DNA of 64,000 nt from Eledone cirrhosa (lineage: Eukaryota), in contig OZ024743.1 of the NCBI GenBank assembly GCA_964016885.1, forward strand, positions 216,690,001 to 216,754,000. Direction: 5' to 3'. The position numbers and the translations under genes are program-made. Positions 1,427-64,000 of this stretch are shown piece after piece (position 1 is the stretch's first letter; each line of letters begins with the position of its first letter). Below the pieces are notes generated by a model, which was not told where the DNA came from, did not search any database, and saw only the letters and a list, made by a program, of their open reading frames with translations.

Positions 1427-1831
1427 AGCTCACTGGATATGCAAATTAGACTGCTCAGCCGTTAATAAGCATAAGGAAAGTATATACTTTCAGACGTTCA
1501 ACCATCTGGCAGGAAGGTATACGATGCTGACGATAGTTAATAAGCTTGAAACTAGTACATCGTTCCTCTGTCAGTGTTGTACAAAAAGGTGACGTGGTTG
1601 CCTAAACACTGTACGGCGTAATTCGGGCTCTTTGTTTGTTTACAAACATACCAAGCACTATAATGAATGTTCGGTAAACCGATACGTGCATATGTATATG
1701 TGTGCATGTATGTATATATATACATACTACTGCACGTCTGTATACATATATGTATGTACGTATACATACATACTTACATTTAAGTAACTGCCTCACTAAG
1801 AGTGAGAAATGAAATTTCGTTTCATTCTCTT

Positions 1832-1911: not shown

Positions 1912-3445
1912 ATACTTGGGGAGGGTCATATTTGTGTAATATTGCCAGAATTAATAACAGAACACACTCATTGTTTGGCTGGTTTTCGCTTCTCGCTGTC
2001 TTTTATATCGGTAATATAACTTACTCGGTCCTCAATGTTGCCATTGACTGACCGACGGTCAAAAATAGTACAGATACAATATAGACACAGACACATATAT
2101 ATAGTTTATCATAAATCTTTCGTTGCACATATGCAACATCGTCAGTGGTGTTATATTTTCCTCCTGTTGTGTTGTATGTCTACGCCATTTTTATTCAGTC
2201 TGTCTATATATTTATTTATTTATTTGCTTGTTTGTTTATTTTATTTCGTCTTCTTTGCGCATGCGTTTGCGTGTGTGTATAGTGTTATGTTTGCTGTGTG
2301 ATGGGTGACTAGTGTGTGTTTATGTGCTTGTTCTTATTGTGCTTGTGTATGTATGTATTTCTTTATTTATCTTATTTGATTTACTTATTTATACTTCTCT
2401 TAGGTCAGTGTTGTTTGTTTGGGTGTTGTTGTTATTCCATTCATTCTTTCTGTTTAGCTTTGGTCTTCTAATTTCTATTTCACTGGCCTCTCTGATTTGC
2501 CTATCTGCTGGGTCATTTCTATGTTTAGATATTATTCTAATTTCTATGTTGTCTATGTTACCGTCATGTTGTTGTCTAGCATGTTCGTATAGTACTGACC
2601 CGTTTTTTCCTCCTTTTAGTTCCCCCCCAGTGTTGGTCTATCCTTTCACCTATGCTACGAGCTGTCTCACCTATGTATGTTGTTGTCATGTTTCTGCAAG
2701 TATCCTCTGTACATCTTATGCTATAGACTACGTTTCTAGTTTTACAGTTTATCCGGGGGTTCACCTTACATATGATACATTTCCTATTGGTACAGTGGGT
2801 TTTCTTAAAAGAGTAGGTTTTGCAGATCAGGGATTTTATGGTGGTTCCTGGCTTTTCTACCACCTTTATTTTTAAGTGGGTCTTTCTAAGGGCCTTTCTA
2901 CACTGGTTAGCTAATTTCCCTCCAGGGGTGGCGTCCACAAACATGACACTCTGGTATCTCTGGTTGTCGTACCATGAGGTGGCTTTCCCTATCTTATGTC
3001 TAGCCCTATCTAAGCTATTCCATGATTTGCTCCTGTATAATGGGCAAATTCCTTTCCTGTCCAGTTCTATGAGGGTCTTATACTTTTCCATGGCTCCTTC
3101 GTATACTCTGACTCTGTCTCTTTGGTTGTAGCCAGAGAACATCATGCGGTTGATGAAGTGTTGGATGTGTCTTTCCATTTCTGTTGGGTCGCACATGCGG
3201 GACACATTCTTCATCACTCGTACCAAATCTGCGATCAGAATATTAAACTTAGCACAACATTGAGGACCGAGTAAGTTAGATTACCGATATAAAAGACAGC
3301 GAGAAGCGAAAACCAACCAAACAGTGAGTGTGTTCTGTTATTAATTCTGGCAATATTACACAAATATGACGCTCCCTAAGTATAACAATATTTGTTTCGA
3401 CACACGATTTCATATAAAAAACCTCGCAAAACTAATTCATCGCCG

Positions 3446-3447: not shown

Positions 3448-3497
<50 letters not shown>

Positions 3498-3500
<3 letters not shown>

Positions 3501-4012
3501 AGAAAACACAGTTAAAGATTAAGAGAAGGATTTTATCCAGTTATTTAAGACCGTTTCATTGGTAAGTGCAAACTTATATTACTATACTGCAAATAGCAGC
3601 CACTCAAATATAATTGTTGTTCACAGTCCAAATTTTCAGAATAGTAAGTAAGTTACTCTTGAAATAATTCTTAATATATATTAAGAATTATAAATATATT
3701 AAGAATTATTTCAAGAGTAACTTACTCTCTATTTTGAAAATTTGGACTGTGACAACAATTATATTTGAGGGGCTGCTATTTGCAGTATAGCAATATAAGG
3801 TTGTACTTACCAATGAAACGGTCGAAAATATCTGGATAAAATCCTTCTCTTAATGCTTACCGGTGTTTTCTCTTTTATACTTTATACTCCAAGATTGAAC
3901 TGAATTCTTACAAACTTGTGGAGTTACCCCTAACCGTACGCTGAAACCATCCATGAAACTGACTTTCTAACCAAGAACTGGATCACAATAAGCAATTTTT
4001 TGCTTCTCTAAC
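3498..4012. mobile_element. ORF-less foldback of two head-to-head pLTRs of PLE family B, each with an HHR motif (3542-3643 minus, 3730-3830 plus)
   Basis: Arms match 58955-59273 and 60962-61094; flanked by (TA)n. Confidence 0.9.
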
Positions 4013-4034
4013 TATATATATATTTTAATAATAT

Positions 4035-5445: not shown

Positions 5446-5675
5446 TCATATTACTTTGACCTAAAACCATAATAGCGCTTTTATCTTGTCTATAAGCAAC
5501 TTATGTGTCAGTAGCTAAGGAATTCGTTTCTTGGAGGTTTATTTAATAGTAATGAGAAGTTTTAAAAACTATACTGTAGAAGAGAACGTATTATTGCTCA
5601 TGTCATGTTAACTAAACAAGAAATCTGAATAAACTGTTCAATAAATGTAAACAAAATATCAGTTATAAATTTAAA

Positions 5676-5858
5676 TGGATTGGCAGTATCGGTAGAGAGT
5701 CGGACGCCATGCGTTCCAGCATAGTTACGTCCCTTTACGATCTGAGTTCAAATCCCGCCGAGGTTGACTTTGCCTTTCATCCTTACGGGGTCGATAAAAT
5801 AAAGTACCAGTAATGCACTGGGTAATTGCTGGCCTTGTGCCTAAAGTAGAAACAATTA
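5676..5858 (+). mobile_element. tRNA-derived SINE with a MetaSINE-like central domain
   Basis: A-box TGGCAGTATCGG, B-box GAGTTCAAATCC, core GAGGTTGACTTTGCCTTTCATCCTTACGGGGTCGATAAAATAAAGTACCAG. Confidence 0.85.
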
Positions 5859-7259
5859 ATTTAAATTACACAGACATTATCCAGTTGATATATGTATGAT
5901 GATATCTATGCATTAATTATTATTTCAGGTAAATTTTTGTTGTTGTTTTTTTACCTACGATCAAAAAAAGCATCAAATAACCACCAACAATTTTATTTAA
6001 ACATTATATTATTTAAGGTGTCCATTAGTTAAAACGGTTGGTTACTATTTGTGTTGAATATGGCTGTCATTTTTAGTAGTTCAAATAACCGTGTAGATGT
6101 TATCTCAATCTTTAGTTTGCAAGAAATTTGATACTTTTCTTGTTATATGACATCAGCTCAATGGAAGGTGGTGTTTTATTTGCTAGAAATAGCAGCTTGA
6201 GCAGCTTGGATTATATATCCAGGAGAGTCTTTTACGTGGAAATAGACGTGATGCTCAATGTTGAAATGTCATATGTTCATGGATCTGTTCAATCAGCGTG
6301 GACGTGTGGTTAAACAACAATATCATAAATAATTCATGCACTCGAGTAAGAATCTTTCGTTCGATGCCGATGAAGAGAAAACGCAGTGTTACAATACTAT
6401 TGCCCCTTGAAGACACCTTTTGCTTAATATTCTACATTTGGGATTTAGAAATATAATGATGGCAATTGTTATTGAGATTTGTATAAGCACCAGCTGATTA
6501 CAGTATCCCATTTCTAACATTTTCTGTAGATTATCAGCGTACACCAGCTTCTAAACAGTATTTAATACATGAAAGTGCTGTTGTGTAACAGAAGTTATTC
6601 ACAAACAAGCACAAAAGCACTACCCGGCTCAGGAGTACGTTTTGACAATACTGTTACAAACATTCGAACGAGGTATTACCCGGAATATTCTAAGGTGTAC
6701 ATATTCATACTACAGCAAGCTATTATCATTTGATCTTCACTTCCCCCAAATGTCCTTGAATATTGGTCTAAGATTTCTTCCATAAAATAACCATTACGAA
6801 AATACTAACAACAAATATGGACACATTTATTTGAAAAAGCAAATGTAATGTAAGCAAAAACCCCCCAAAATATATATCACACCAGTATGGCATCATTTTG
6901 AACAGCACAAAACGAGAACAAGGTAACTGAAGATTCTTTATCACTGAAGATCACACCAAATGAATATGCATTTTCTGAATAATCAAGACAAATGATTGAA
7001 TCACTGTTGCCAGCTGTTGAGATAGATGAAATATATAACAGCAGCATTCACAATTTCCCCACTTACAACAATGTGAGCAAATAAAGGACACATTCCTAAC
7101 AATTGCATGGTTAAACGATACAAATGATTAAATTCAAATCTGTTGCATGCTTACACAAGATCTCAGAGGCCAGTAAAAGTGTTCTAAGATGTAATACATA
7201 TATATGTATGATGAGATACAGACACTCACACACACACACACACATATATACATATAATA

Positions 7260-7438
7260 TAATTGTTTCTACTTTTGGCACAAGGCCAGCAATTAACCAG
7301 TGCACTACTGGTACATTATTTTATCGACGCCGTAAGAATGAAAGGCAAAGTTAAGCTCGACGGGATTTGAACTCAAACCGTAAAGGGACGTAACTATGCT
7401 GGAAAGCATGGCGTCCGACCCTCTACCGATACTGCCAA
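7260..7438 (-). mobile_element. SINE, same family as 5676-5858
   Basis: Reverse-complement match over the full length. Confidence 0.85.
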
Positions 7439-7947
7439 TATATATATATACATATAATATAATGTAATATAACATAATATAATATATATAATATGATATA
7501 ATTTAATATAATATATTAATATATATAATATATAATATCGTTGTGTGCATGAAGTAAGATTATTCATTTTGTGATATATTGCAAATCGTAATCAATAGTT
7601 GGTATTTTTTCTAAGCAGTGAATATAAACGTAAACTGCATATACAGTATTTCCATTTTCAGACTAGATATATATCATCAAATTTTATTAGCTCTCCGTTT
7701 TAATCACATGATGTTAAATGTATGATAGCACACTTTGATGCCTTCAATATTTTGTTTTCATTTACTTTATTTCTGTTAGATAAGGAAGAAATACATAAAT
7801 ACATGTCTAAATTCCTAAAATAATGTTTAAACACATAAATTGATAAAACTTCAGTTATACTTCTTCTTTATCTCTTGACGTAAACCGAATACATGTATGT
7901 ATATACACATGTGTGTATGTGTATGTATGTGATTTTATATATATAAT

Positions 7948-9179: not shown

Positions 9180-10010
9180 CCCAATTACAACCAGATCTGT
9201 AACTGTCTAAATTGGATACTCCTTTGCCAGGATCATGAAGCCAAGCTTCCTGCATAGTCAACAGAACCAGCCCCAAAATACATGGATGTTCTTGGGTCAT
9301 GCCAGCTGGATCAACAATACAACACCCCAGTCATAATAGACAAAGCTGAAGTCTGCCAATTGAGTCAGAGTACCAAGAGTTATCCTGAAAATACGACGGT
9401 ATGTCAGAAAGTATGTTTAAAAAGCACTTCCTTACTGACAAAATGACATTCAGATACCCAATAAGAAGAAACACCACAAATTTGGCGAATAAAGTATGTC
9501 AACTCAAAAACAAGAACATGGACTTCTCCCAAAAATGCAAGATACTGTAAAAATCTGGTCAACATATTCATGGACTCAAATCCTGCGATTATTCAATGTT
9601 GAGCAATGGAAGGTATTGCATAAATTCACAATAACATGAGACCGCTTAACACACGGACACAATTCTGCTCATGGTATTGTAAAGTTTTAAAGAACTGGGC
9701 GCCTTAGTATTTATTTATGTGTTTCCCAGAAAAAATGTACTCATTCTATTGACTATTGTCTAGCCGCCTCGTCTCTATTAGTTATTTAGCATTTGTTCAC
9801 TTTCTTTCGGTCCAATTGTCTCCCCTGTATCATTTAGATAATCATCTCTCCTTGTTTAACCTATTTTTCTTTATTTTCTTTCTGTGTAAAACATTTTCCG
9901 GTTCATTTTCATCGACAAATTTTGAAAAAGTTGATCCTCAAGGGTCATCCTCGAGGATCATACGAGGTACGAATGCTTCTTCGGGAAGCGTTCGTACATC
10001 GTATGATGCC
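9180..10010 (+). mobile_element. Highly decayed PLE 3' region with 3' UTR hairpins
   Basis: Remnant CNC motif (TGTAACTGT ~9198) and LN.R-like tail (~9645), pyrimidine-rich UTR, strong hairpins at 9932-10007. Confidence 0.4.
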
Positions 10011-18600: not shown

Positions 18601-18874
18601 CATATATATATATACTAAGTGTTTATATATATGTATGTGGCCGGTGTTCGGTTTTATGTACAGAGGAATATTGATAAGAGTTTATTCTTTATTTTTCACG
18701 CAGCGAAATGTTATTCATCATCTTATCCATTACCATTTAAATGCGACGAAAAAGTTTATATTTAGTGACTTCCACATTCGTAATCCTTCTTTTTTATTGT
18801 CATACACAGCATTACCCACAGAATTATCAATATAACTATGAGTGTAGTATGCCACACAACTGCCAAACACTATA

Positions 18875-19372
18875 AATAATTGTTTCTACTTTTGGCACAA
18901 GGCCAGCAATTATCTAGTGCATTACTGGTACTTTATTTTATCGACCCCGTAAGGATGAAAGGCAAAGTTAACCTCGGTGGGATTTGAACTCATAATAGCA
19001 GGGCCGTAACTCTTTGCTGCAAAGCATGGGGTCCGACCCTCTACCGATACTGCCAATCACCACCACTACAGATAATTGTTTCTACGTTTGGCACAAGGCC
19101 AGCAATCAATCAGTGCATTACTGGTACTTTATTTTATTGACCTCGTAAGGATGAAAGGCAAAGTTAACCTCCGCGGGATTTGAACTCAAGGGCCATAACT
19201 ATATACGTCAAAGCATGGCGTCCGACCCTCTACCGAAACTGCCAATCCACCAATACAAATAATTGTTTCTACTTTTGACACAAGACAAGCAATTAACCAG
19301 TAAATTACTGGTACTTTATTTTATCGATCCCGTAAGGATGAAAGGTAAAGTTGACCTCGGCGGGATTTGAAC
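18875..19372 (-). mobile_element. Three tandem SINE copies (~18875-19064, 19072-19250, 19258-19372)
   Basis: ATAATTGTTTCTAC...GGATTTGAACT repeated three times. Confidence 0.9.
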
Positions 19373-19994
19373 TGTCGTTATGTTGATATGTTTAACGCAA
19401 AGTCTTCGTTATATAAAATACAGATCATAGCTAAAATTCCTATGGGATATTATTGTTGGAACATAAATCTTAATTTAATGAATGCTATAACGGGTCTTGA
19501 ATTACATTTAACATTAAAATGCTTTAATCAAAAGATAGTGTTTCTTATTCTGCCAGAATTGGTTTGATATTTGTCACATTTTCATATATTTTTCTTACTT
19601 GTTTATCAAATATTTGTTAGGCATTTTCTTTCTTTCTCTTGCAAATCAAGTGTCATTTTTGACATTTCAGATGTGGTGTATGAGAGAGATGTGGTGTATG
19701 AGATGTGGTGTATGAGAGAATGAGAGAGAAAGAGATAGAGGGGTGCATTTACACAAATATCTCTATATGTGAGACTGATGCATAGATATCCTTTTGTATA
19801 TGAGTGGGGTATGGGGTGTGTGATGTTTGTATTTGTTTTTGCTAGGTTTTGTTAATATATTCTCTTCTTTCAATGATATATTCCATTTTCAAGTGTTCTT
19901 TTCCATTCCAGTGATACAGTTACTGTTGCGGCTAATGTTGACGTCATACTCTTTGTCATTTTAATCCTAATCAGCAGCAGGAAATGTAACAGTA

Positions 19995-23527: not shown

Positions 23528-23680
23528 GGCGGTGAATTGGCAAGTTACGGCCCTTGCCATTCTGAGTTCAAATTCCGCCGAGGTTAACTTTGCCTTTCAT
23601 CCTTACGGGGTCGATAAAATAAAGTACCAGTAATGTGCTGGGTATTTGCTGGCCTTGTGCCGATAGTAGAAACAATTATT
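23528..23680 (+). mobile_element. SINE, internally deleted
   Basis: GAGTTCAAATTCCGCCGAGGTTAACTTTGCC...GTAGAAACAATTATT. Confidence 0.85.
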
Positions 23681-26664
23681 ATTACTTTTAATAATGTCGA
23701 CCAGGAGAAAAGATAAAGCCTTTTGAATTTAATACTTTAATGGATTGGGTCATTCATGGATTGTCGAGATAAATTTGCATATTTACAACTCATTTAGTTG
23801 TTGAACAACCCAACCTTCCACTATCCAGTGTGGCATATAGCGGACATACAACATATATATTATAGAAAATGTAGTATATATGAATTAAAGCTGGTGAAAA
23901 GTCTCAGTGTCAGTTATTCAAGGTTGTAATTAATTACAGTGACAACATCCCCAACTTATCTTTGAGTACGCTGTCATGTATCTGGTCTATTGGCAACAAC
24001 TTGAAAAGCTATACTCACTATGTGCTGCGTCTATCTGCCGATTTTAAGAGAAAAGTCGTTCGGAGCACGATTAGTTACAATAAACATCGAGTATTGCCCC
24101 GTTCGATCTGCTCAGATTTTGCCTAGTGGGCTTTCCTTGTCCAATGTTTTTTCTTTGACTACGTCATGACATTTCCTTGACATTGGGGAATCTGTGGAGA
24201 GAGAACACGAAATATATCTCGCACCACCGGCTAAAATTCATATAAGTTTCTGGACCGTACAGGTCTATAACAATAAAAATATTTTCAAATATTTTTCGAC
24301 AAATATAGTTTTGTTGCACGAAATATATATAAATATTATCTAGGTAACTATATAGCAGCTAAAAGATTCCAAACAATAACCCTAATGTTGGTAGTCTCTA
24401 GGCTAGTTTTTATTTGGATCGCCTCAGATTACGAATCTCTCCTTTGTTTTACAAAAGGACTGAATGTCATGTACTCTCATTATGATACTCTAAATGAGTG
24501 CACTTCTCCTTAAATCTGTTAGATCCAATTTGGTTTCTCATACTTATAATTTCCCCAAACCAGATCACATTGATAGATACTGGCAGCTATAATGTGTATT
24601 TCTTAATATGCTTTAGAAATAATACTTTTCACAGTTGTTGAATCCATGAGTTCATAAAAAATTTGTGCTAATACAAATATGATACCATTGAACGCTCTAA
24701 CAGTTACTTAATGATTCAGTTAGGAAAAATCTTACTTCAGAGAATAACCCACTGTGAATTTTTAATGCATATGCGTCTGCTTCTCTTCGAATGTTTCTGA
24801 TTCTTTAGATTTAATGTGAATTTTCCACTATTTCGCTTTCCATTTTGTTTTTCTAATACGATCCTGAGGAAGTTATAAAGACATTTTAAATAAAATAATA
24901 ATGGATTCTTTATTTAAATAAAATCATGAAAAATGGAGACAGTTGATGTTTTTATTCTACTTATTTTATCAATACTAACATAGCATATCATTTATTTTCA
25001 TAATCCTCTTACTTTGATAGCTTTAATAGCTTTTAATAAGAAGAACGAAATTGTCAGTTCATATGAAAATGTTAGTCTCTGGGGGTCGATATCGAACATA
25101 TGTGTGTGTCTGTGCGTCTGTGCTTTAAGTTCCTTTTTCGGCCAGGACAGTAAATGTCCATTGTCGGAGCATATATACTTGCCTTATACCACCTGAATCA
25201 ACAGATATGAATGTGTATACTTCAGGAATAATGGATGCTTCCGGCTTTTATACGATCAAAAACAATATATATTTTTTAATTTATCAATCTGATCTAGATG
25301 AGGTCTCTCGGTGCTGGTATAAAGGGAAGTAATTTCCAGAAACAAACAAGGTTATCAAGTATAATATATTATACAGAACTCTTTGTATATCCTTCACTGT
25401 GATATATATATATTTATATATATATATATATATATATATAGTCACGCCAGTTATTTTCATTTTGGGGTTAGGTTTTCTTTCTTTTATAACTTTATGTAAT
25501 ACACACAATGAGTAACCCTGCCCATATACGATGCTAATAGACTCAGAAATATTTATACATCATCACCAATATGTATGCAACACTCCAAAAACACACGTAA
25601 ATGTATTTAAATTAGAAAGAAATCACACACTCATATGTCCTTCTTTTTCATCTTCTTTCATCTATGAACCACATGTTTTTTGTCAACTTCTACTCATTGA
25701 ACCTTATTTTTGTCGGAGCATATATATGTGACTTATACCAGTTATTTTTGTATTCTACTACTCATAATAAAGGACTAACGTCCGATATATTGAACTTACA
25801 TTTATGCCGATGATGTTGAAGATTATGATGAGGGTTCATATCTGGAAGGTTAATGATTTTTCTTTTTATTAAACTGATGAGTCTGACATTTTATACTTGT
25901 TTACATTTTAACTTATTCAGAATGTCTAACGAAATGTTTTGACAGCCATCATATTATTAGATATTTAAAGAGTAAATATAATTACCTTTCTCAATAACAC
26001 GGAGCAAATCTGTCTCAAACCCTGATCTACCGATCTATGAGATGAAAGGTTACTATCGTTTGCACTCCTGTATCTTATCACTGTACGTCTCAATTATAGT
26101 GCATTCATTTGTATAATCATCTGTTATAGCTCTAGTGACAACCATCGATCGATTCCCTTGAAACATTATCCAGAACATCTAAAGCTTTATCGAGAAATTC
26201 AGATTATCAGTTTTCTGAATTAAATTGAATAATATAATGTTTGTCGTGTATTTAATTTCTCTTTCTTAATGATAAGAAGCTTCGTTTTTAATCAATAATT
26301 TTTCCTTTTTTTTCCAAAAATAACGAGGGAAAGTAAACATTAATCATTTGGGTTTCCCCTTACTATTATATTACATACAATGTAATAGCTTGCTAGTCTT
26401 GTTAGATTACCAGATTGAATATGGATTAAATTACAGAAGTTTCGTTATTTTACTTTACGGCTTTTAGAAACGGTTGTATCAGATATTAGTCTACTCTTCT
26501 CCTATGTGTGGTTCTTGGAAAATGATCATGTTATTTTTATAGTTTTATTTTTTATTCATATATCATCAGGTATGACAAAATATGACGACAAAAATAATCT
26601 GTTGTGTTAAACTTTCTCTGTGATTCTGAAGTGTTGTATCCAATAATTAATTGGGTTGTATATC

Positions 26665-32136: not shown

Positions 32137-33046
<910 letters not shown>

Positions 33047-33796
33047 TATATATATATATTTATATATATAAATATATAGATATATTTGAATGGATACAGT
33101 TTAGTTGAAAGGAATTTATTGACACGTGTTTCTATAACATTTACATAACCTGAAAACAGCTGCTATCTACAAAGTATTAGTTATGCAGACAATCAATATT
33201 TCAATGTTATTATTTACTGTCATTTCATCAGAATAATATTACTGAGGACCTGATTGGTTTTTATAGAGAATATTAGGAGAGAGGGGTGAAGTTGTTAGAA
33301 GAATAGTTGAGGGAGTGGTTTTTTGATAGCAGTGAGAATTTTTGGTGGCAGTGAGTAATTAGATTCCTATCTGTTGTTTTGGCATTTTTATAGAATATAT
33401 TATTGGTTATTTTTCTAAATCTATAGAGGGATTAGAGATAGTAAAGATATGCGTGGTTGGTTTTGTGTTTGCACTTAATTAACATTCAGACTTAAATTTT
33501 TTCTTTCCAGTGTACGTATCCATTCACCCACACATTCTCACACAAACATATTTGCACCCCTCTACAAAATACATATACTCACATTCACATAGTAACATGT
33601 CCATACTTACATACATATACACATGCATACATATATATATACACACATGTACATACATACGCGTTCATGTGTGTACATTTTCATACTCAACTTATCTTTA
33701 TATACACACGTATAGACACACACATATATACATACATAGTCTAGTCTATGTGTATATATATACATATACATATATATCTATCTATCTATCTATCTA

Positions 33797-33842
<46 letters not shown>

Positions 33843-34118
33843 CATTTTAATACATGAATACACTTACATCTAACTATACACATCAAACATATATATATAT
33901 CTACTTATTTATATACATGTTCACATATATATACATACTTATGGTCGCTTTTAGACACATTCATTATCGCATTTTTGCACATATTCTCATCAGCATATCT
34001 TTCCATTATTAGTGTGGTAATTTGAGGTTATTAATATACATATATATGTTGAGAAGAAATTGTTTTTATATTTTTCTAACTAGATTGAGGTTTATATAGT
34101 TGGGGGGATGTCCCTCTT

Positions 34119-35124
34119 TTATGTAATATTCGGCTTGTAGTGGGAAAAAAGGGTTTTAGTTCGGTGACGGCAGAATAATGTTCATTCAATTCTGTTATTC
34201 AGCAATTTCTTCTTGTGTGTGATTATGTAATACATCTCAAGATTACACAATTTGCAGAAATTTTGGCTCCTGGAAAAGCTTTGGGTTTTAGCTAATTTCA
34301 CCCATTTTAGGGTAAACTTTTGATCGCTATCCCTGAGCGTCCAAGTTTTTCTGCTAAAGTTGTTACATTTCTGGTGTTTTATTGAGTAAGAATGCTTATA
34401 TAATCGAGATTTAAACGATGTTGCCGTTGATCCCACGTAATACCACTCGTTTCCTCCGGATTTAATGGTACATTTATAAATAATATTTTTTTCCAGGCAG
34501 TTATTGCCGAGGGGGCAGTTGTCAGGATAGGTGCAGTTACAGTTGTGTACGTTGGGTTTTCTCTGGAGTAGTATTGCGGACGAACTTAGGTGTGGTTTAT
34601 TTATGTTCTGTAGTGTATTGTCTACTGTTTTTTTTTGTGTTCTTTGTACTTAAGTTTTTAGTGTTTTCGTTTAACCTTCTAGTATTGATCTTTTTTATGT
34701 GTTGTTCAAGGTTTAACGCTGTAGAGTATGACAGTCTTATAGTGGTAGGGTTTAGGATTTTGTGGTATTTGTGTGATGTAGGAAAATGTCTCTTAATTAT
34801 TTTAAAGAAGAGTACTGGTAAATTTGTACTAATGGAACTATTGTATTCGGGGTTATACCATAAGTACTCTTTGCATCGCTTTCTATTAGTTTTGTTTGTT
34901 GGTTTACTGGTGAGCATACTATGGTAGTAAGTGTGATTTATTTTGGGTGTTTTGATTGTTCCCATCTATATACTCTATTTTGTTGAGGTGGCCTGCTTTA
35001 CTAAGGGAGTTATCGTAGTATTCGGCGTGTTCCTTAAATACTTGTATGTTAGAAGATAGACCCGAGATTCTAAGGGAAATATTTTTAGGGATAGATTTAA
35101 TTATAGAGATGGGGTGGTTAGATC
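34119..35124 (-). pseudogene. PLE RT thumb, CNC..CPL..C linker and GIY-YIG endonuclease, disrupted
   Basis: SNHPISIIKSIP..RISGLSSN; LWYNPEY..HFP..IRLSYS; CNCTYPDNCPLGNNCLEKNIIY..YYVGST..FKSR..CKLCNLE..CRHR. Confidence 0.9.
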
Positions 35125-35292
35125 CAACAGATGGGAATCTAATTACTCACTGCCACCAAAACAACAGATGGGAATCTAATTACTCACTGCCACCAAAGAT
35201 TCTCACCGCTATCAAAAAACCACTATTCTTCTAACAACTTCACCCCTCTCTCCTAATATTCTCTATAAAAACCAAACAGGTCCTCAGTAATA

Positions 35293-35413
35293 TTATTCTG
35301 ATGAAATGACAGTAAATAATAACATTGAAATATTGATTGTCTGCATAATTAATACTTTGTAGATAGCAGTTGTTTTCAGGATATGTAACTGTTATAGAAA
35401 CACGTGTCAATAA
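35293..35413 (+). ncRNA. Type I HHR with ~92-nt stem II (family A pLTR)
   Basis: TTATT-CTGATGA-A-ATGACAGT...ACTGTTAT-A-GAA-ACACGTGT-C-AATAA. Confidence 0.75.
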
Positions 35414-35588
35414 ATTCCTTTCAACTAAACTGTATCCATTCAAATCTTTCTATTTTTCTCCGGATTACTTTTGGAATTTCAACTGGAACCGTCGAGCAAA
35501 CTCTACGTGAGCTGTCAATCTACTGTGTGTAATATTTATATTACAACACAACGGAAAATACTGTATATAAATATATATATATATATAA

Positions 35589-35937: not shown

Positions 35938-37258
35938 ATTAGTATATCTACCAACATATGTATACAGATGTATACCCATGCTACCAAATATATATGTTAT
36001 GTCTTAGTACCTTTGTGGTTCTATTCAGGGGGATGCAGAACAATAATATGAAAGAATTAAAATAAGAAAATTTTAAAAATTAAAAATTAACTTACTTACT
36101 AAAATTTTCACTCCAACCAATGAGTTTCAGTAAGGTAGTAAATATAGTTACGCAACGCAACTATAGAGAAGTCCTTACGTTATCAGGGAGTCTATTCTCA
36201 GCTAAGTTCCCAGGCAATACGCGGACACTAGGAACCCATATAAAAATAATAATTCAGTAGATGGAATAAAGCTAGCGGGGACTAAATTCCAGGGCACTGA
36301 AAAAATTCACTGCCTACTTGGATAGTGGCAAATTATAAAGAATCAATCACGTGACACTGAGGTTAATCAGTGAGGAGTGGTGTGGTATTATGACAAGAGC
36401 CTAACTACTACCATGAACCATAGCAGTAAATTTTGGCAAGTTTTGCTCAACAAATAATTTGGAGATAAATATAGAGAATTAGTATATCTACCAACATATG
36501 TATACAGATGTATACCCATGCTAGCAAATATATATGTTATGCCTTAGTACCTTTGCGATTCTATGCAGGAGGATGCAGTACAATAATATGAAAGAAGTAA
36601 AATGAGAAAATTTTAAAAATTAAAAATTAACTTACTTTTAACTTTTAATGTTTAATTTATAATTTATAATTTATAATTTTTAATTTTTAATTTTTAATTT
36701 TTAAAATTTTCTTATTTTACTTCTTTCATATTATTGGTCTGCAACCCCCTGCATAAAACCACAAATGTACTAATACATAACATATATATTTGCTAGCATG
36801 GGTATACATCTGTATACATATGTTGATAGATATACTAATTCTCTATATTAACTCCAAATTATTTGTTGAGCAAAACTTGCCAAAATTTACTGCTATGGTT
36901 CATGGTAGTAGTTAGGCTCTTGTCATAATACCACTCCACTCCTCACTGATTAACCTCAGTGTCACGTGATTGATTCTTTAGAATTTGCCACTGACCAAGT
37001 AGGCATTGAATTTTTTCAGTGCCCTGGAATTTAGTCCCTGCTAGCTTTATTCCATCCACTGAATTATTATTTTTATATGGGTTCCTAGTGTCTGCGCATT
37101 GCCTGGGAACTTAGCTGAGAATAGAATCCCTGATGACGTAAGGACTTCTTTATAGTTGCTTTGCGTAACTATATTTACTCCCTTACAGAAACTAATTAGT
37201 TGGAGTGAAAACTTTAGTAAGTTAATTTTTAATTTTTAAAATTTTCTTATTTTACTTC

Positions 37259-39563: not shown

Positions 39564-40198
39564 TATAATAACTAGAAATTGATTAACATATAAATATACA
39601 TGGATAATCACAGGAGATAATTTTTACAAGTGTGTAAGTAAACATAGCTAGGAAGGTAACTAAATAAAGTTAACCAGAACTTCAAAAATAGATACCTTAT
39701 AATATGAATAATCTTCCCTGTATATATTCCATTAAAGAAATATATTTCACCAATTAATCGAATGGTAAACCATGGAGGCCGGTACTTGGATTTTCAACAA
39801 GGAAAAAGTCCAGCGATCTATGTTTACACTTCAAATTCAAATCAGCGACTGGCCAGCAACACGTGCTGCTTCTACTAGAAATACACACATCATACCAGCT
39901 TCGTCACAGTGGCGTGAATAGGGTTATCGACAACTAGAAACAGCAATCAAATCCTTTCAACTTGTTGAAAATCCAAGTACCGGCCTTCATGTTTTACCAT
40001 TCGATTAATTGGTGAAATATATTTCTTTAATGGAATATATACAGGGAAGATTAATCATATTATAAGGTATCTATTTTTGAAGTTCTGGTTAACTTTATTT
40101 AGTTACCTCCCTAGCTATGTGTGCTTACACACTTGTAAAAATTATCTCCTGTGATTACTCATGTTTATTTATATGTTGATCAATTTCTAGTTATTATA
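39564..40198. mobile_element. Foldback family E: ~238-bp inverted arms, 158-bp spacer, variant HHR in each arm
   Basis: 39564-39801 is the reverse complement of 39961-40198. Confidence 0.9.
39961..40045 (+). ncRNA. Variant type I HHR with U3-A8 core and AUA site (mirror copy at 39716-39802, minus)
   Basis: CTTG-TTGAAAA-T-CCAA...TTGG-T-GAA-ATATATTTC tttaat GGAATATAT-A-CAGG. Confidence 0.7.
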
Positions 40199-41800: not shown

Positions 41801-42851
41801 CCAGTAACTGTGCAGCATCATCAGAAATATGAAATAGCTAGTTACATGCCTTTTCCTATAACATTTGTGGCTAAGAATGGAGGAATATTGGTATCATATC
41901 CCAAACTTTTGCTAATGGTTTTTCGTATCTACGTTGTCAGGAGCAGCATGGACAGCATATAGAAAACTTTCCCTTTTCACCTAAAGGGATATTTAGGATG
42001 CAACTGAAAGGTTTCATCAGGACTGTTTTGCTACTTTATTTAACCGGAGATGAGTACTTAAATTTGCAAAAAATATAACAATCCATTCTATCAATTTCTG
42101 ACATATAACAGGAACTTAGTAATTGAACTAACATAACATTCCACTTAGAGGCTACCACGAGGAAATGTTACCTTATAAAACGGCGATTATAAACATTTTC
42201 CCAAAGATATACATTTGGGTACATCTTTATTTGGGCATAAGGCCACAAACTTTCTCTATATCTTCTATTTTCTGGCTAAATAGAACTTCACATCTTCATA
42301 TACATTTCAGCTTGTGCTCATTTGTTTGCCAACATCCCTGTTTTTTTTTCTTCATCTTCGCTTCAGACATCTGAATTGAACAGCTCATTTCTTTTTCGTT
42401 CTCTATTTCACTCTGGTAAAGTGTGAGTTAGGTCCTAAAATGAAGTCCTCGTAATTTTTCTTGAAGGCCACTTTATTTACACGCGAGTACACTTCGTAAG
42501 ACTATGGCGAGAACAGCATTACATTGCTTATAGTAATGACACTTTATAAATTATTGTTTTTGGTGTAGTTGAAATAGTTGAATCGCTGTTTAGCCGCTAT
42601 CTCTTTTTTTTTATTTGCTTGAACGTATTTCAGTGTTATTATTGGCGACAATGCAGACAGGTTTATTGTTCTCGTTGATAAAGTCTGTGTGTGTGTGTGT
42701 GTTGGGGGGCATTGTGATTTTTAAAAATATTATATCAATCTTTGAAATAAAGTAGAAAAGCCCCCATTTATATAACATAGGGGTGTCTTTCCAACTTTTC
42801 CCATTGTCCTTTTTTCTTCCCTACACGATGCTATTTACAAATATTTCAGAC

Positions 42852-43250
42852 ATGCTTTCCAGCGTAGTTACGTTCCTTTACGATCTGAGTTCAAATCCCG
42901 CTGAGGTTAACTTTGCCTTTCATCCTTACGGGGTCGATAAAATAAAGTACCAGTAATACACTTGGGTAATTGCTGGCCTTGTGCCAAAAGTGGAAACAAT
43001 TATTCTTAGTTATTTGCACGCAGCGTCTTTTTTCTCTATCGATTTTCCATTTAGGCACACGGCCAACAACTTTTTAGGGAAGGGAAAATTCCGTTAAATC
43101 GACCCCAGTGCGTAACTGGTGCTTTATTTTATCAACTCCGTAAGGATGAAAACTAACTTCGTCAGGATTTTAACTCAGAACGTAAATCCCCATAACCCTA
43201 TGCCACAAAGCTTGCTGTTAGCCGCTCTATCTATCCTGCGAATCCGCTAA
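42852..43250. mobile_element. Two SINE copies tail to tail (~42852-43003 plus, ~43025-43250 minus)
   Basis: B-box and central domain seen in both orientations. Confidence 0.8.
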
Positions 43251-45512: not shown

Positions 45513-45561
45513 AAGAGACAAGCAATGATAAAGGAGTCTTGGAAAGATATTAGATGGAAAA

Positions 45562-45657
45562 ATAATTGTTTCTACTTTTGGCACAAGGCCAGTAATTACC
45601 CAGTGTATTACTGGTACTTTATTTTATCGACCCAGTAAGGATGAAAGGCAAAGTTAT
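45562..45657 (-). mobile_element. 5'-truncated SINE
   Basis: 3' half of the family; flanked by the direct repeat ATGGAAAAATAAT (probable TSD). Confidence 0.8.
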
Positions 45658-50150: not shown

Positions 50151-50639
50151 ATACCGGTAATGATCATCCCGTCTATATGTATAACAATATCAAGATTGTT
50201 TAATCTATCTTTTCTTTGAGACGGTGGAGTGTAAATTGAGGAAGGTTTGGTCGTTTGAGCGACTATATCAATCCGAGAACCAATATATACTGATAGCTTT
50301 TTACCTGAGGCAGAAATAAAGTCTGTACCCTTTCTCTCTCCCTTTCTACCTCTCACTCTCTTAATATTCGTATTTCTCGTTTTCTATTCCCCACTTTCTC
50401 TTTTTCTCAGTTCGGATCTAGCTGTCGAAACGGCCGGAGCCAGCCGTCAGCGTCCTGACTCTTTCCCTATTTATCATGTTATGTATATATATACCATTTT
50501 CCATTTCATTCTTTCAAAGAGACACTTGGTGTAAGCGTTGCCGCGCGATATGCGTTTCTGGGAGAGAGTATGATAAGTTGTGAGGGGAAGGTCTTCAGTT
50601 ACTTCACTTATATAAAAATGCACACATTAACTTTAATCA

Positions 50640-50952
50640 CGCCGAGGTTAAATTTGCTTTTCCTCCTTATAGGGTCTATGAAATAAAATACCAGTTACGC
50701 ACTGGGATCAATTCATTAGTGTTCCCCTTCCCCAAAATTGTTGGCCGTGTGCCTAGAGCAGAATCAAGTGCGATGGATTGGCAGTATCGGTAGATGATCG
50801 GATGCCATGCTTTGCAGCATAGAGATACGCCCCTTTATGATCTGAGATCAAATCCCACCGAGGTTAACTTTGCATTTCATCCTTACGGGGTCGATAAAAT
50901 AAAGCACTAGTAATGCACTGGATAATTGCTGGCCTTGTGCCAAAAGTAGAAA
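50640..50952 (+). mobile_element. Two tandem SINE copies
   Basis: Central domain at ~50640 and ~50855. Confidence 0.8.
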
Positions 50953-51168
50953 TATTTTTTGTTAATATTCACACACACACACAGGTACGTGTGTAGACAT
51001 ATAATAGAAATGCTTTTAAACGTGCGTAGCGCAAGTATAAACGAATATATGAATGCTAGCTACGTTCAATAATTAGAAAATGTAGATAGTGATAGATAGA
51101 AAAAAGCATATATGCAGCACAAATTGATCCGTTTCAAACGTACATGCGCACTCGAACTCACTTCATGA

Positions 51169-51812: not shown

Positions 51813-52150
51813 TACGAGGGTCGGCTGCAAACTTCCATAGGCTGTCTATAAATGAGTGATGCGAGTGCAGTGAATTATTTCATGCATTAATTTCAAATCT
51901 CATTATTATTATTAACTGCAGTGGATTGGCAGTATCGGTAGAGTTCAAATCCCGGAGAGGTTAACTTTGCCTTTCATCTTACGGGGTCGATAAAATAAAG
52001 TACCAGTAATACACTGGCCTTGTGCCAAAAGTAGAAACAATTATTATTATTAACTGCATTGTTTCCTTCCAGCGACTATGATGAAAAATATACCTTATGT
52101 GGTCAAAACATGGGAGTATCCTGGTCAGCCTATGAACTTTTCAGCTGATC
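51813..52150. mobile_element. Mariner MITE interrupted by a SINE (51921-52039) with a 19-bp TSD
   Basis: TACGAGGG..ATAGGCTG / GGTCAGCCTATGAACTTT; ATTATTATTATTAACTGCA at 51902-51920 and 52040-52058. Confidence 0.8.
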
Positions 52151-58876: not shown

Positions 58877-58954
58877 ATATATCTGTGTATATATATATAT
58901 GTGTGTGTATATATATATATATGTATATATATGTATATATATATATATAAATAT

Positions 58955-59555
58955 AGTTAGAGAAGCAAAAAATTGCTTATTGTGATCCAGTTTTTGGTTA
59001 AGAAAGCCAGTTTCATGGATGGTTTCAACGTACGGTTAGGGGTAATTCCACAAGTTTGTAAGAATTCCGTTCAATCTTCGAGTATAAAGTATAAAAGAGA
59101 AAACACAGGTAAGCATTAAGAGAAGGATTTTATCCAGGTATTTACGACCGTTTCATTGCTAAGGGCAACCTTATATTGCTATACTGCAAATAGCAGCCAC
59201 TCAAATATAATTGTTGTTCACAGTCCAAATTTTCAAAATAGTAAGTTACTCTTGAAATAATTCTTAATATATAGAGAAAAACATTTATTTGGAATTGTAT
59301 TTACTAGTATATAGAGAGAGGAATCAGGAGGTGAGGGGACAGACGGCATAGTATAGAGAGAGAGGAAGGGGGAAGAGGTAGGAAGTAGAATGACAAACTG
59401 AGATGGGGGGAGGGGTAGAGGTGGAAGGATTCCTTGGTCAGTTTTGATAGCAGACATCATGTCGTGGAGTGTAGTGAGTTAAAGAGAATTAAATAGATAA
59501 TAGTGGGAGGGGTGGATAGAGAGGGAGAGAGAGAGGGGGAGATATAAAGAGATAA

Positions 59556-59646
<91 letters not shown>

Positions 59647-61094
59647 TACATACACACATACACATACATACACATACACATATATATATAAAAAATAAAA
59701 ATAAAGATAATAATGACAAAATTAAAAGCAAAGAAGGGGGTGAGAAAGAAGAAAAGAAAATATAGCCAAGAAGGGGGAAGGAAGGAAGAAAACGAAGAAA
59801 TAGAAGAGGAATGAGGGAGAAGAGGGGGATATATGTATATGTTTTGTGGGAAATTTAAAGGGTTTAGATATAAGAGGGTATAAAGTCTAAGTATATGCAG
59901 TTTGTCAGTTGGTAGTAAGAGGTTAAGGGTTCGATTTGTAGTGCGAAAACTTCTCTTTGTGTCTATGGTTACAATAAATTGATCTCTCAATTTTATTGTT
60001 GAGTAACCTATTCTTCGAACTTAAGATGTGGAACAGCTCAAGGTCGCATAATCGACAGCTTCTCATACCACTCCGATATGGGGGCGCGTTCGATAATTGT
60101 TTCCACTTCAGGGTGTATTGATGGTTACTTTCCCTCAGTTGCCAGGTCTTGTTTGCAAGGGTAGTTACATAGCGGTGCTGGGAATGTTTCATTGCGTAAC
60201 GGTGTGTATAACAACGAGCTTTAAATGTATTCCCAGTCGCTCCGATGTAATACCATTTCTGGTTGTCTGATTCCACTGTACATTGGTAAACCAGGTTAGA
60301 CTGCATACATTCATTTTGTAATGGACAGGTTTCAGGTAGGTGGCTGTTACATTTCTTGTTATGGGCAACTTTGGCATTATTTGTGGGCTGCGATGCCTGA
60401 ACAAGTGTGTTACGTTTTGTTTGCCTGTTAGCGGGTGGTTGTGTATTAGATATTCTGTTGTGTTCGGTGGTAATTGTATTGTTATTGTTGTAAATTTGTG
60501 TTTTTGGTGTTGGTATGTATCTTTTTAGCGTTAAGCATCTTAATGTGTGCCTCTATGTTTGGTGCCGTGGAGTAGGATAGTCTAATAGATTTAGTGTTAA
60601 GGATTTTGCTGTATCTATGTGAATGTGGAAAGTGCCTATTTATTATTCTAAAGAACGTAGAGGGTAGGTTAGTACTAATAGAGGTGTTAAATATGGGATT
60701 ACACCAAAAATATTTTCTACTACGTGACTTGTTTGATTTCGATGTTGTATTTCTATTTGCCGTATAATTTGTAGTTCTATGCGTAAATGTGTGTATGCGT
60801 GTGTTTCTGGAGTTTGTGTTATGCGTGTTCGTGTGCGCTTTACAGAGGCTTTAATCTATATATTCTACTCTATCTAAGTGGCCTGCCTTGTCTAATGCGG
60901 TATTGTAGTATTCCGCATGTTCTTCGAAGATTTGCCGGTTAGATGAGAGGCGGGAGATCCTGTGAACAACAATTATATTTGAGTGGCTGCTATTTGCAGT
61001 ATAGCAATATAAGGTTGTACTTACCAATGAAACGGTCGTAAATACCTGGATAAATTGCTTCTCTTAATGCTTACCTGTGTTTTCTCTTTTATAC
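58955..61094 (-). mobile_element. 5'-truncated PLE (family B) with 3' pLTR (58955-59273) and inverted 5' pLTR part (60962-61094), in TA-rich microsatellite
   Basis: GIY-YIG ORF, inverted terminal segments, U3-A8 HHR at 59139-59240 (minus). Confidence 0.9.
59923..60961 (-). pseudogene. PLE RT thumb, linker and GIY-YIG endonuclease, disrupted; paralog of family A
   Basis: RISRLSSNRQIFEEHAEYY; NLVYQC..WYYIGATGNTFKAR..H..CRLCDLE..LLNNKIE..CNHRHK. Confidence 0.9.
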
Positions 61095-62161
<1,067 letters not shown>

Positions 62162-64000
62162 CACTCGAGAGCACCACAATTAAGGGACCCAGAGGGGCCG
62201 CCGCTGACACCATGCCAGGTGTCATACCGACAGCCATTTCTAGCGCCCCAAAAGTCACACCAGTGCTGCTGCTGAATGTCAGAGTTCTGGTGAAACTCAC
62301 TAACATGAGTAAAATTTCCTAGCTGGGAGACTTAGCCATAAGCGATGAAGGGTTATACATGGCACTTACCGAAACGCGCCTGACAAGCAGTATAGCAGAT
62401 GCAGATATACATATACCGAAATATTCTGTATTTCGTTCGGACAGGAAGGAGAGAACTCATGGCGGGGTTGCTCTGTATATCCCTGAAGATATCACACCAA
62501 TTGTACTGTTGACATATTCAAACCCAGTCTGTGACACACTGATAATACATATGAAGCAACTAAAGACAGTAATATGTGTCACTTATTGCCCTCAGGGTAA
62601 ATTTGAGGATAGCCTCAGTAGGATAGAAGAGGTCCTTGACAAACTGGACCAGGGTCTCAACATTCTACTACAGGGAGACTTCCACCTGCCAAATGTCAAA
62701 TGGCCTGAGGGTCACCTACTCCCTGGAATGACGTCAATAGAACAGAGAGAGACGGAATCCCTGCTGGCCCTCACACACAGGCTGTTCATGGAACAACCAG
62801 TACTCCTCCCAACAAGAGGCGAAAATGTCCTGGACCTCTGTTTTACAAACAAGGAAGTGCTCATCCACAATGTAAAGGTGACACCAACAATTTTATCGGA
62901 TCATAACTTAGTAGAACTAATGGTATGTGGTCCTAGAGAACCAACAGAGACACAACCATCAAGAAGCACCGTGACGTTATCCAGACTTAACTTCTACAAG
63001 GCTAATTCGAAAAATATCAGGAGAGAAATCCGGAAGCGAATATGGAGCGAAAACACCACCACACAAGACACCAACACACAATTTCAATACTTCATGACAA
63101 CGATACACACTATATGCAAGAAGTTTGTCCCGGAGAAAAAGGCAAACAGACACAACAATCTTATTCCCAGATTTAGGAAAATCCTCATGAGAAGTAGAAC
63201 CAAGCTCTCAAACCAGTTGAATGCACAACAAGAAAACAAAAACAAGAAGGAACCCTATTTGAAACGGGCACTACTTGACACCGAGATTGCACTCAAACAT
63301 CCCTATGAAAATGAGAGGGCAAAGAAAGAAAGCAGGGCCATAGAAAATATTAAAACAAACCCTAAGGCTTTCTTTAAATTTGCAAATGAAACTGCCTCGG
63401 TACACTACAACATTGGGCCACTCTTCCATACAGACGGTTCATTAACCGAGAATCACCAAACGATATGTGAAATACTAAACGAACAGTACAAACATGTGTT
63501 CACATGTCCACTGAGGCACATGCAAATAACAAAGCCAGAGGAGTTCTTTGATGCCACAACACTACATGAAGAAATGGCGACGATCAACCACATAGACATA
63601 ACGGGGGAGGATGTGGTATACGCCATAGATGAAATTAGAACAGACTCAGCTGTTGGACCTGATGGATTCCCAGCAGTCCTCTTAAAAACATGTAAGTGGG
63701 CCTCCACAGTTCAGAAGCTCCTTGGCTAGTGGTATACTACCCAGGGAGTTGAAAGGAGGCACAATATTCCCTATCCATAAAGGAGGTAGCAGAGCGGAGG
63801 CCAAAAATTATAAGCCAGTCTCCCTGACTTCGCATATCAGTAAGGTCATGGAGCGAGTCGTCAGAAAGAAGCTGATCACTTTCCTCAAGGAAAATGACCG
63901 CCTGACTAGCACGCAGCATGGCTTCCGCCCTGGAAGAAGCTGCGCTGCACAGCTGCTACATCACTACGACTGCGTACTGAAACAACTGCTAGACAGCTCA
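62162..64000 (+). mobile_element. APE-type LINE (CR1/L2/Jockey group), running off the window end
   Basis: Starts at the edge of the microsatellite; endonuclease and RT motifs. Confidence 0.9.
62359..64000 (+). pseudogene. LINE ORF2: AP endonuclease and RT N-terminus, frame disrupted near 63700-63770
   Basis: LTETRL, RSDR..GGVALY, GDFHLP, PTRG.NVLDL, SDH, GPDG; then PIHKGG..NYKPVSLTS..KVMERVV..QHGFRPGRSC. Confidence 0.92.

Follow-up and report, generated by a model that had tools for sequence, protein, structure and literature searches.

A compensated U3-A8 hammerhead motif in the 3′ repeat of a Hydra-type Penelope-like retrotransposon

The 64-kb window, that is, the whole stretch of DNA that was analysed, carries a type I hammerhead motif at 59139..59240 on the minus strand, recognised from its sequence and with a descriptor. 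Its 3-8 pair is the compensated U3-A8 combination, and the element that carries it, within its 3′ repeat, is a Hydra-type Penelope-like retrotransposon (PLE). Based on folding models and on comparison with related families, we consider it likely that this motif, referred to as family B, would cleave weakly as a dimer after GUA, probably with help from a protein.

In the standard hammerhead numbering, as used in the papers cited here, the minus strand reads as follows. The 5′ strand of helix I, UAUU, occupies 59240-59237 and its 3′ strand, AAUA, 59142-59139. The first core box, U3-U4-G5-A6-A7-A8-A9 (UUGAAAA, with the U3-A8 pair), spans 59230..59236, placing U3 at 59236, A8 at 59231 and A9 at 59230. 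The helix II region (59155..59229) begins with a U·U mismatch between U10.1 (59229) and U11.1 (59155), continues with a base formed by UUGG (59228-59225) and a (C/G)CAA partner strand (59159-59156, reading GCAA in this copy), and encloses a 65-nt insert (59160-59224). The second core box, GAA, lies at 59154-59152 and A17 at 59143. Helix III (59144..59151), ACGGUCGU, is self-complementary, giving 2 bp in a monomer and 8 bp between two copies, and the cleavage site predicted from the hammerhead consensus falls 3′ of A17 (GUA), at 59142..59143. A descriptor that accepted either C3-G8 or U3-A8 returned seven matches in the window, including the one at 59236, versus one in 20 shuffled windows (0.05 per window), whereas an Rfam search at the site returned no hammerhead family, even at an E value of 10.

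The motif has the type I core N3-U4-G5-A6-N7-N8-A9 / G12-A13-A14 with a Watson-Crick 3-8 pair, the A15.1-U16.1 pair and H17 (A-U and A17 in the copies at 59139 and 61030 and in the X1 contigs described below), and three helices with an open helix I, namely a weak helix I of 4 bp, a helix II base of 4 bp and the 2/8-bp helix III. It also has the palindromic 15.2-16.2/loop 3 and short helix I of the minimal PLE consensus (Cervera 2014). The canonical C3-G8 core (CUGANGA) is replaced by UUGAAAA, and we do not class family B as canonical; the G10.1-C11.1 pair and the unpaired base after A9 of the strict Cervera 2014 consensus are likewise absent, with U·U in their place. The family B hammerhead would work like the minimal PLE type, but lies outside that strict consensus.

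The motif sits in the 3′ terminal repeat of its host element, about 680 nt behind an endonuclease ORF on the same strand, which upholds the proposal of the first-pass annotation that a U3-A8 hammerhead is tied to a GIY-YIG-coding PLE. This ORF fragment (59923..60552, minus strand), assigned from motifs and relatives, encodes a linker and a Hydra-type GIY-YIG endonuclease with the motifs VY..YIG, CRLC (CxxC), E, N and CNH (CxH). Its linker reads CxSx5C, one base from Cys, and that of the sister family C reads CxCx5C; as judged by eye, CCHH is absent both from the ORF and from the consensus of the alignment of relatives (A2). No Pfam match was obtained for the ORF, and 3373 relatives were retrieved at E ≤ 0.001; among the best 150 of the 3373, CxxC..E..N..CxH is present in 113 and CxCx5CP in 79. 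The full-length relatives P0082 and P0128 contain RW(Q/R), DKT and YRDD. The frameshifted C-terminal RT/thumb part lies at 60485..60959 (minus strand), and since homology to the full-length relatives begins only near 60959, which marks the 5′ truncation point, the copy linked to the 59139 motif lacks the RT core. The published marks of the Hydra clade, as far as the available part of the source goes, are a C-terminal GIY-YIG domain with CxxC and CxH around E/N, a CxCX5C linker, RWK and DKT, and no CCHH (PMC8557442). Judged by its sequence, the element is a Hydra-clade PLE. At its 3′ end, a tail of ~140 nt followed by (TA)n occupies 58945..59082 (minus strand), and each of the two family B insertions in the window is bordered by (TA)n at either side, includes an inverted truncated copy of the repeat and has the ~140-nt tail at one end only; one-sided tails and inverted copies have been described for Penelope-like elements. 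A search for homologous proteins gave five candidates, none significant, and nine pattern matches in viral contigs included no relatives.

Three further family B copies are present in the window, at 3493-3680 (minus), 3694-4023 (plus) and 60960-61100 (plus), with 92-96% identity over the shared parts. The motif at 3542..3643 (minus) has C3, which leaves a C·A mismatch, and its 15.2-16.2 pair is broken; the C3 is best read as decay. Head-to-head with it, the motif at 3730..3830 (plus) has U16.1 changed to A. The copy at 60960..61100 (plus; "61030") is an inverted, 5′-truncated terminal-repeat copy with (TA)n at its end, which starts at the equivalent of 59223 and contains neither the first core box nor UUGG. 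The 59139 copy is the sole one of the four with every core nucleotide, and its lesion is G for C at 59159, in the outer helix II pair. Position 3 is U in two of the three window copies that retain it and C in the third. Copy-by-copy comparison confirmed the first-pass annotation in that every full-length copy has a lesion or more and that the 3542 copy has C3. The four-copy consensus proposed there stands as to motif, core and mismatch, but its first-core-box half rests on three copies, because the 61030 copy lacks that box.

The family state was read from public contigs, aligned to 58950-59300 at 80% likeness, with variants listed at a share of at least 3%. One run, X1, contributed 650 contigs, in which no variant of at least 3% was listed at U3, A8, U10.1, U11.1, GAA, helix III or A17, nor in helix I beyond a 4-nt insertion behind 59239 (2,075/25,475); as contigs lose rare variants and changes close to contig ends are unlisted, X1 gives the dominant state only. 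At 59159 the pairing base is restored (CCAA) in 90,651 of 91,096 depth units. Further differences were found at 59164 (84,517/85,356) and 59205 (56,132/56,132, 100% of depth), together with a 3.6% variant at 59206 and a 1-nt deletion at 59222 (4,046/54,057). Since X1 departs from every one of the four window copies at 59205, it represents a relative and not the same genome; the change itself is uncompensated in the distal helix II hairpin. Four contigs came from run X8, one of which covers 59114-59240 and has three differences identical to those of X1, and runs X7 and X11 gave one contig each, neither covering the first core box. Given that no variant of at least 3% affects U3, A8 or helix III in X1, U3-A8 is, at the level of sequence, the family B state, and the X1 contigs bear out UUGAAAA and CCAA as the consensus. 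Family B, as seen in these contigs, is too young for within-family covariation. Insertion ends in X1 lie at 59081-83 and 58951, and none of the nine loose ends listed, out of 49, falls at the cleavage site.

Compensation can instead be read between families, and the better covariation control is the sister family C rather than family E, which is discussed below. Family C occupies 33086-35443, a truncated Hydra-type element with two C3-G8 hammerheads, one at 33117..33236 (minus) with A·A at 10.1/11.1, a long helix II, helix III ACACGUGU and C17, and a second in an inverted repeat copy at 35293..35412 (plus). Its endonuclease (34128..34541, minus) is 43% identical to that of family B, and the thumb region 60% identical. 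The first-pass annotation had passed over this C3-G8 sister family, as well as the self-complementary helix III and the insert hairpin of family B. In a tree of 31 rows the B and C endonucleases group at 100/99, a grouping that may be inflated, both being long branches. Their hammerheads are alike in the helix I strands UAUU/AAUA and in the long helix II (A9-G12 span of 75 nt in B and 92 nt in C, versus 42 nt in E). Between B and C, two-sided changes occur at 3-8 (U-A/C-G), 10.2 (U-A/A-U), 10.5 (G-C/A-U) and 15.3 (G-C/A-U), as read by eye in the core register from two families, which is not a statistical test.

Beyond these two families, we surveyed 80 metagenome loci with a Hydra-type endonuclease. 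They were retrieved with a tighter alignment of 16 proteins that excluded family B and so sample the Hydra clade, not the nearest kin of B. A hammerhead lies downstream of the endonuclease in 46 of the 80, and positions 3 and 8 pair in 46/46 (45 C-G, one U-A), in a scan that required helix pairing and gave paired 3/8 a score bonus, the letters at 3/8 and 10.1/11.1 being the free observations. No match was found in the remaining 34 loci, many of which are cut near the endonuclease (at least 250 nt downstream are available in 58/80); a C3-G8 match in L062 from one scan is absent from the 46-locus scan. Positions 10.1/11.1 are G-C in 22 of the 46 loci, U·U in 21 and A-U in three, and the A9-G12 span is 11-25 nt. 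After collapsing, 29 distinct motifs remain, 28 with C-G and one with U-A, and U·U is present in 19. U3-A8 and U·U occur together in a single locus (1/46), L043, whose hammerhead (L043:868-945; core UUGAUAA, U·U, a 3-bp helix I and a short helix II region) lies 71 nt behind a Hydra-type endonuclease that falls outside the B+C group in the endonuclease tree. To judge from these letters, the U3-A8 and U·U combination recurs outside family B, and U3-A8 seems to have arisen repeatedly. U·U is independent of U3-A8, because the window site at 1527 combines U·U with C3-G8.

Neither core feature is new, contrary to the novelty implied by the first-pass annotation: U3-A8, UUGAAAA and U·U have each been published. 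In the available part of Cervera & De la Pena 2014 (PMC4209133), U3-A8 is reported in the Cercyon Penelope repeats of S. mansoni, with ~1,300 hits. Rows 3 and 4 of its Fig. S3 place U3-A8 in a Penelope terminal repeat, as in family B, and row 4 has the identical heptamer UUGAAAA. Cercyon hammerheads further share with family B the short helix I, the palindromic helix III and a dimer model, and a closely similar S. japonicum row with C3-G8 (CUGAAGA) parallels the B/C pair. In contrast to family B, with its U·U and 65-nt insert, row 4 combines a short loop 2 with a G10.1-C11.1 pair and one unpaired base, and Cercyon is a different Penelope clade. Among natural hammerheads, Perreault 2011 (PMC3088659) described a covariation that turns C3-G8 into U3-A8 and a stem II opening with U10.1-U11.1, with U3-A8 ribozymes reported active in vitro and U·U the best tolerated 10.1/11.1 mispair; the available part of that paper does not describe these core variants as belonging to a Hydra-clade Penelope repeat. 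Closer in context are the Hydra-clade PLE hammerheads in File S2 of Craig 2021 (PMC8557442, available in part), which, like family B, lie 3′ of a Hydra-type endonuclease and have (TA)n targets, a palindromic helix III and a short helix I. By our own count, 14 of the 26 Hydra rows there have U·U at 10.1/11.1, as does family B, but all 26 are C3-G8 with loops 2 of 3-10 nt, whereas family B has U3-A8 and a span of 75 nt. The PAc Poseidon element of Anolis (PMC11167929, likewise available in part) resembles family B in its terminal-repeat hammerhead, a tail at a fraction of ends and AT-rich targets, and differs in C3-G8, in clade and in a tail of 30-40 bp versus ~140 nt. A literature search with partial coverage found no report of a U3-A8 Hydra-clade hammerhead or of a long helix II insert. 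Both odd core features (U3-A8 and U·U) are already known, and what is fresh is the length of helix II and a decoy fold that is predicted for the monomer.

This decoy emerged from predicted folding. For the majority sequence of the window copies, the minimum free energy (MFE) monomer structure (-20.5 kcal/mol) is a decoy held by pairing of GACUGU to ACGGUC (pair probability ~0.6); the active monomer reaches -15.0 kcal/mol. The majority homodimer has an MFE of -47.8 kcal/mol, in which the two helices II and the shared 8-bp helix III form but helix I does not, and the fully active dimer, at -40.6, lies 7 kcal/mol above it. The ACGGUCGU self-duplex accounts for 8 bp and -5.8 kcal/mol, and a self-complementary helix III is described, in the available parts of PMC4209133 and PMC6765202, as a mark of dimer-type hammerheads. 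Family C dimers fold into the same scaffold as the majority family B dimer. By contrast, each of the three natural full-length B copies is predicted to dimerise, at the MFE, as a decoy instead of the active scaffold. The 65-nt insert is predicted to form an imperfect hairpin of modest stability and significance (z -2.1, with 16/500 shuffles as good; z -0.4 to -2.6 for the natural copies). In a wider fold, an upstream UUUCAA at 59251-59257 (minus) is predicted to pair with the first core box. As a general feature such an upstream "anti-core" was rejected (35 motifs; mean 3.8 nt, against 3.4 nt after shuffling): the 6-nt match of B is not significant alone (p ~0.07-0.11), and that of E (p 0.012) was discounted because it is located at an inversion junction.

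We therefore picture a single copy, on these models, as a decoy, its helix III palindrome taken up in pairing with the 5′ strand of helix II, and two copies as a double-hammerhead scaffold built from both helices II and the shared 8-bp helix III. Cleavage after GUA would be weak, dimer-dependent and probably protein-assisted; in the anole, the PAc hammerhead requires protein to cleave, and insertion in vitro can proceed without cleavage, according to the available part of PMC11167929. By analogy, cleavage in family B would serve to process transcripts that are tandem or read-through, and insertion may not depend on it: cleavage is perhaps not strictly needed, given that no listed insertion end falls at the site and that anole cleavage is dispensable in vitro.

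The same observations could be taken further, to a hammerhead that descends from the Hydra clade and no longer cuts, its U3-A8, U·U, all-AU helix I and decoy being tolerated decay, or one whose fold serves only protein binding or the start of reverse transcription. We regard these two versions, taken jointly, as possible though unlikely. Several weakening features are indeed stacked in the family B motif, the active fold lies 5-7 kcal/mol above the MFE, the listed insertion ends (9 of 49) avoid the cleavage site, another Penelope element dispenses with cleavage in vitro, and conservation inside a young family is little proof. Against loss of function, the two-sided changes relative to family C keep the pairs at 3-8 and 15.3, the remaining core positions are all intact, and U3-A8 is found also in family E, L043 and Schistosoma, with a 3-8 mismatch in 0/46 loci. 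Weak, dimer-dependent cleavage remains our preferred reading. A more elaborate version of it, which we find quite doubtful, is that the B+C sublineage evolved long-helix-II hammerheads and that the weak core and decoy of B act as a switch, which would be off in a single copy and turn on only where one repeat encounters another, within a tandem transcript or a dimeric RT-endonuclease particle.

Family E offers a further comparison. It is represented by a U3-A8 hammerhead with U·U, CCAA/UUGG and a long helix III at 39961..40047 (plus; 39965) and by a second at 39715..39803 (minus; 39797), an inverted pair within 39570-40192, with tail pieces at 382-512. Its helix III of 8-9 bp and helix I of at most 6 bp suggest that it might work as a monomer. 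The exchange of UUGG/CCAA in B for CCAA/UUGG in E, put forward in the first-pass annotation as cross-family covariation, is real as text but fails as covariation evidence: B and E are unalignable, and the window offers no protein by which E could be placed. B and E gave no significant local alignment (best 11 nt, E 0.095), and their 3′ flanks share one 27-nt match (78%, E 0.023); no Penelope protein match lies near family E in the window. As B and E cannot be aligned, their helices III differ and E has no protein, the swap shows merely one 4-bp stem per family. Descent of both from one U3-A8 ancestor, with the stems related by four compensated double transitions, is thus quite unlikely. It would fit the UUGAAAAU, UGAAA and A17 common to both families, the stem differences, all of which (8/8) are transitions, and the weak flank match. 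It sits poorly with the lack of alignable sequence, the helices III unlike in kind (a short palindrome in B, an 8-9 bp stem in E), the different A9-G12 spans, the missing protein in E, the C3-G8 pair of family C, which is B's closest endonuclease relative, and the variable helix II bases across Hydra hammerheads. Nor could DNA inversion yield the swap, since UUGG..CCAA reads the same on the opposite strand.

The idea that AT-rich DNA produced this order of short words by accident, although compatible with the lack of an Rfam match at the site and with natural copies whose MFE is not a hammerhead, is hardly credible when 0.05 descriptor matches are expected per window and seven were found, and when position and register agree with family C and with 46/80 related loci.

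Five hammerhead families are present in the 64-kb window. Besides those above, a hammerhead at 32543-32594 (minus) has CUGAUGA and G10.1-C11.1 and matches Rfam HH9 at 37.7 bits, below the cut-off of 52, and another at 1523-1562 (plus) has CUGACGA and U·U; the two share the helix III palindrome ACUAGU. A decayed Hydra-type endonuclease remnant at 9359-9592 (plus; profile E 1e-9) and a weaker match at 2591-2815 (minus; E 2e-4) have no hammerhead match behind them. Adjoining family C is a large inverted repeat (36089-37227; arms of 380-490 nt, 94%). A 468-codon open frame at 62323-63729 (plus) matches Exo_endo_phos_2 (E 2.5e-10) and is likely a LINE-type endonuclease. A dispersed repeat family of 150-200 nt has more than 10 copies, three of them in tandem at ~190-nt spacing, with copies at 5675-5876, 7252-7439, 18858-19373, 23543-23693, 42851-43245, 45548-45656, 50635-50979 and 51941-52058.

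Family B leaves hammerhead chemistry unchanged and defines no new class; it contributes a Hydra-clade example to the set of U3-A8 Penelope hammerheads already known. Together with L043 it forms a small exception to the view that canonical hammerheads occur throughout the Hydra clade, and families of its kind are missed by CUGANGA descriptors with a short loop 2. Families B (U3-A8) and C (C3-G8) lend themselves to a natural comparison of what such hammerheads do; under the switch reading they would form a matched pair bearing on whether Penelope elements require self-cleavage at all and, if so, whether fast or slow.
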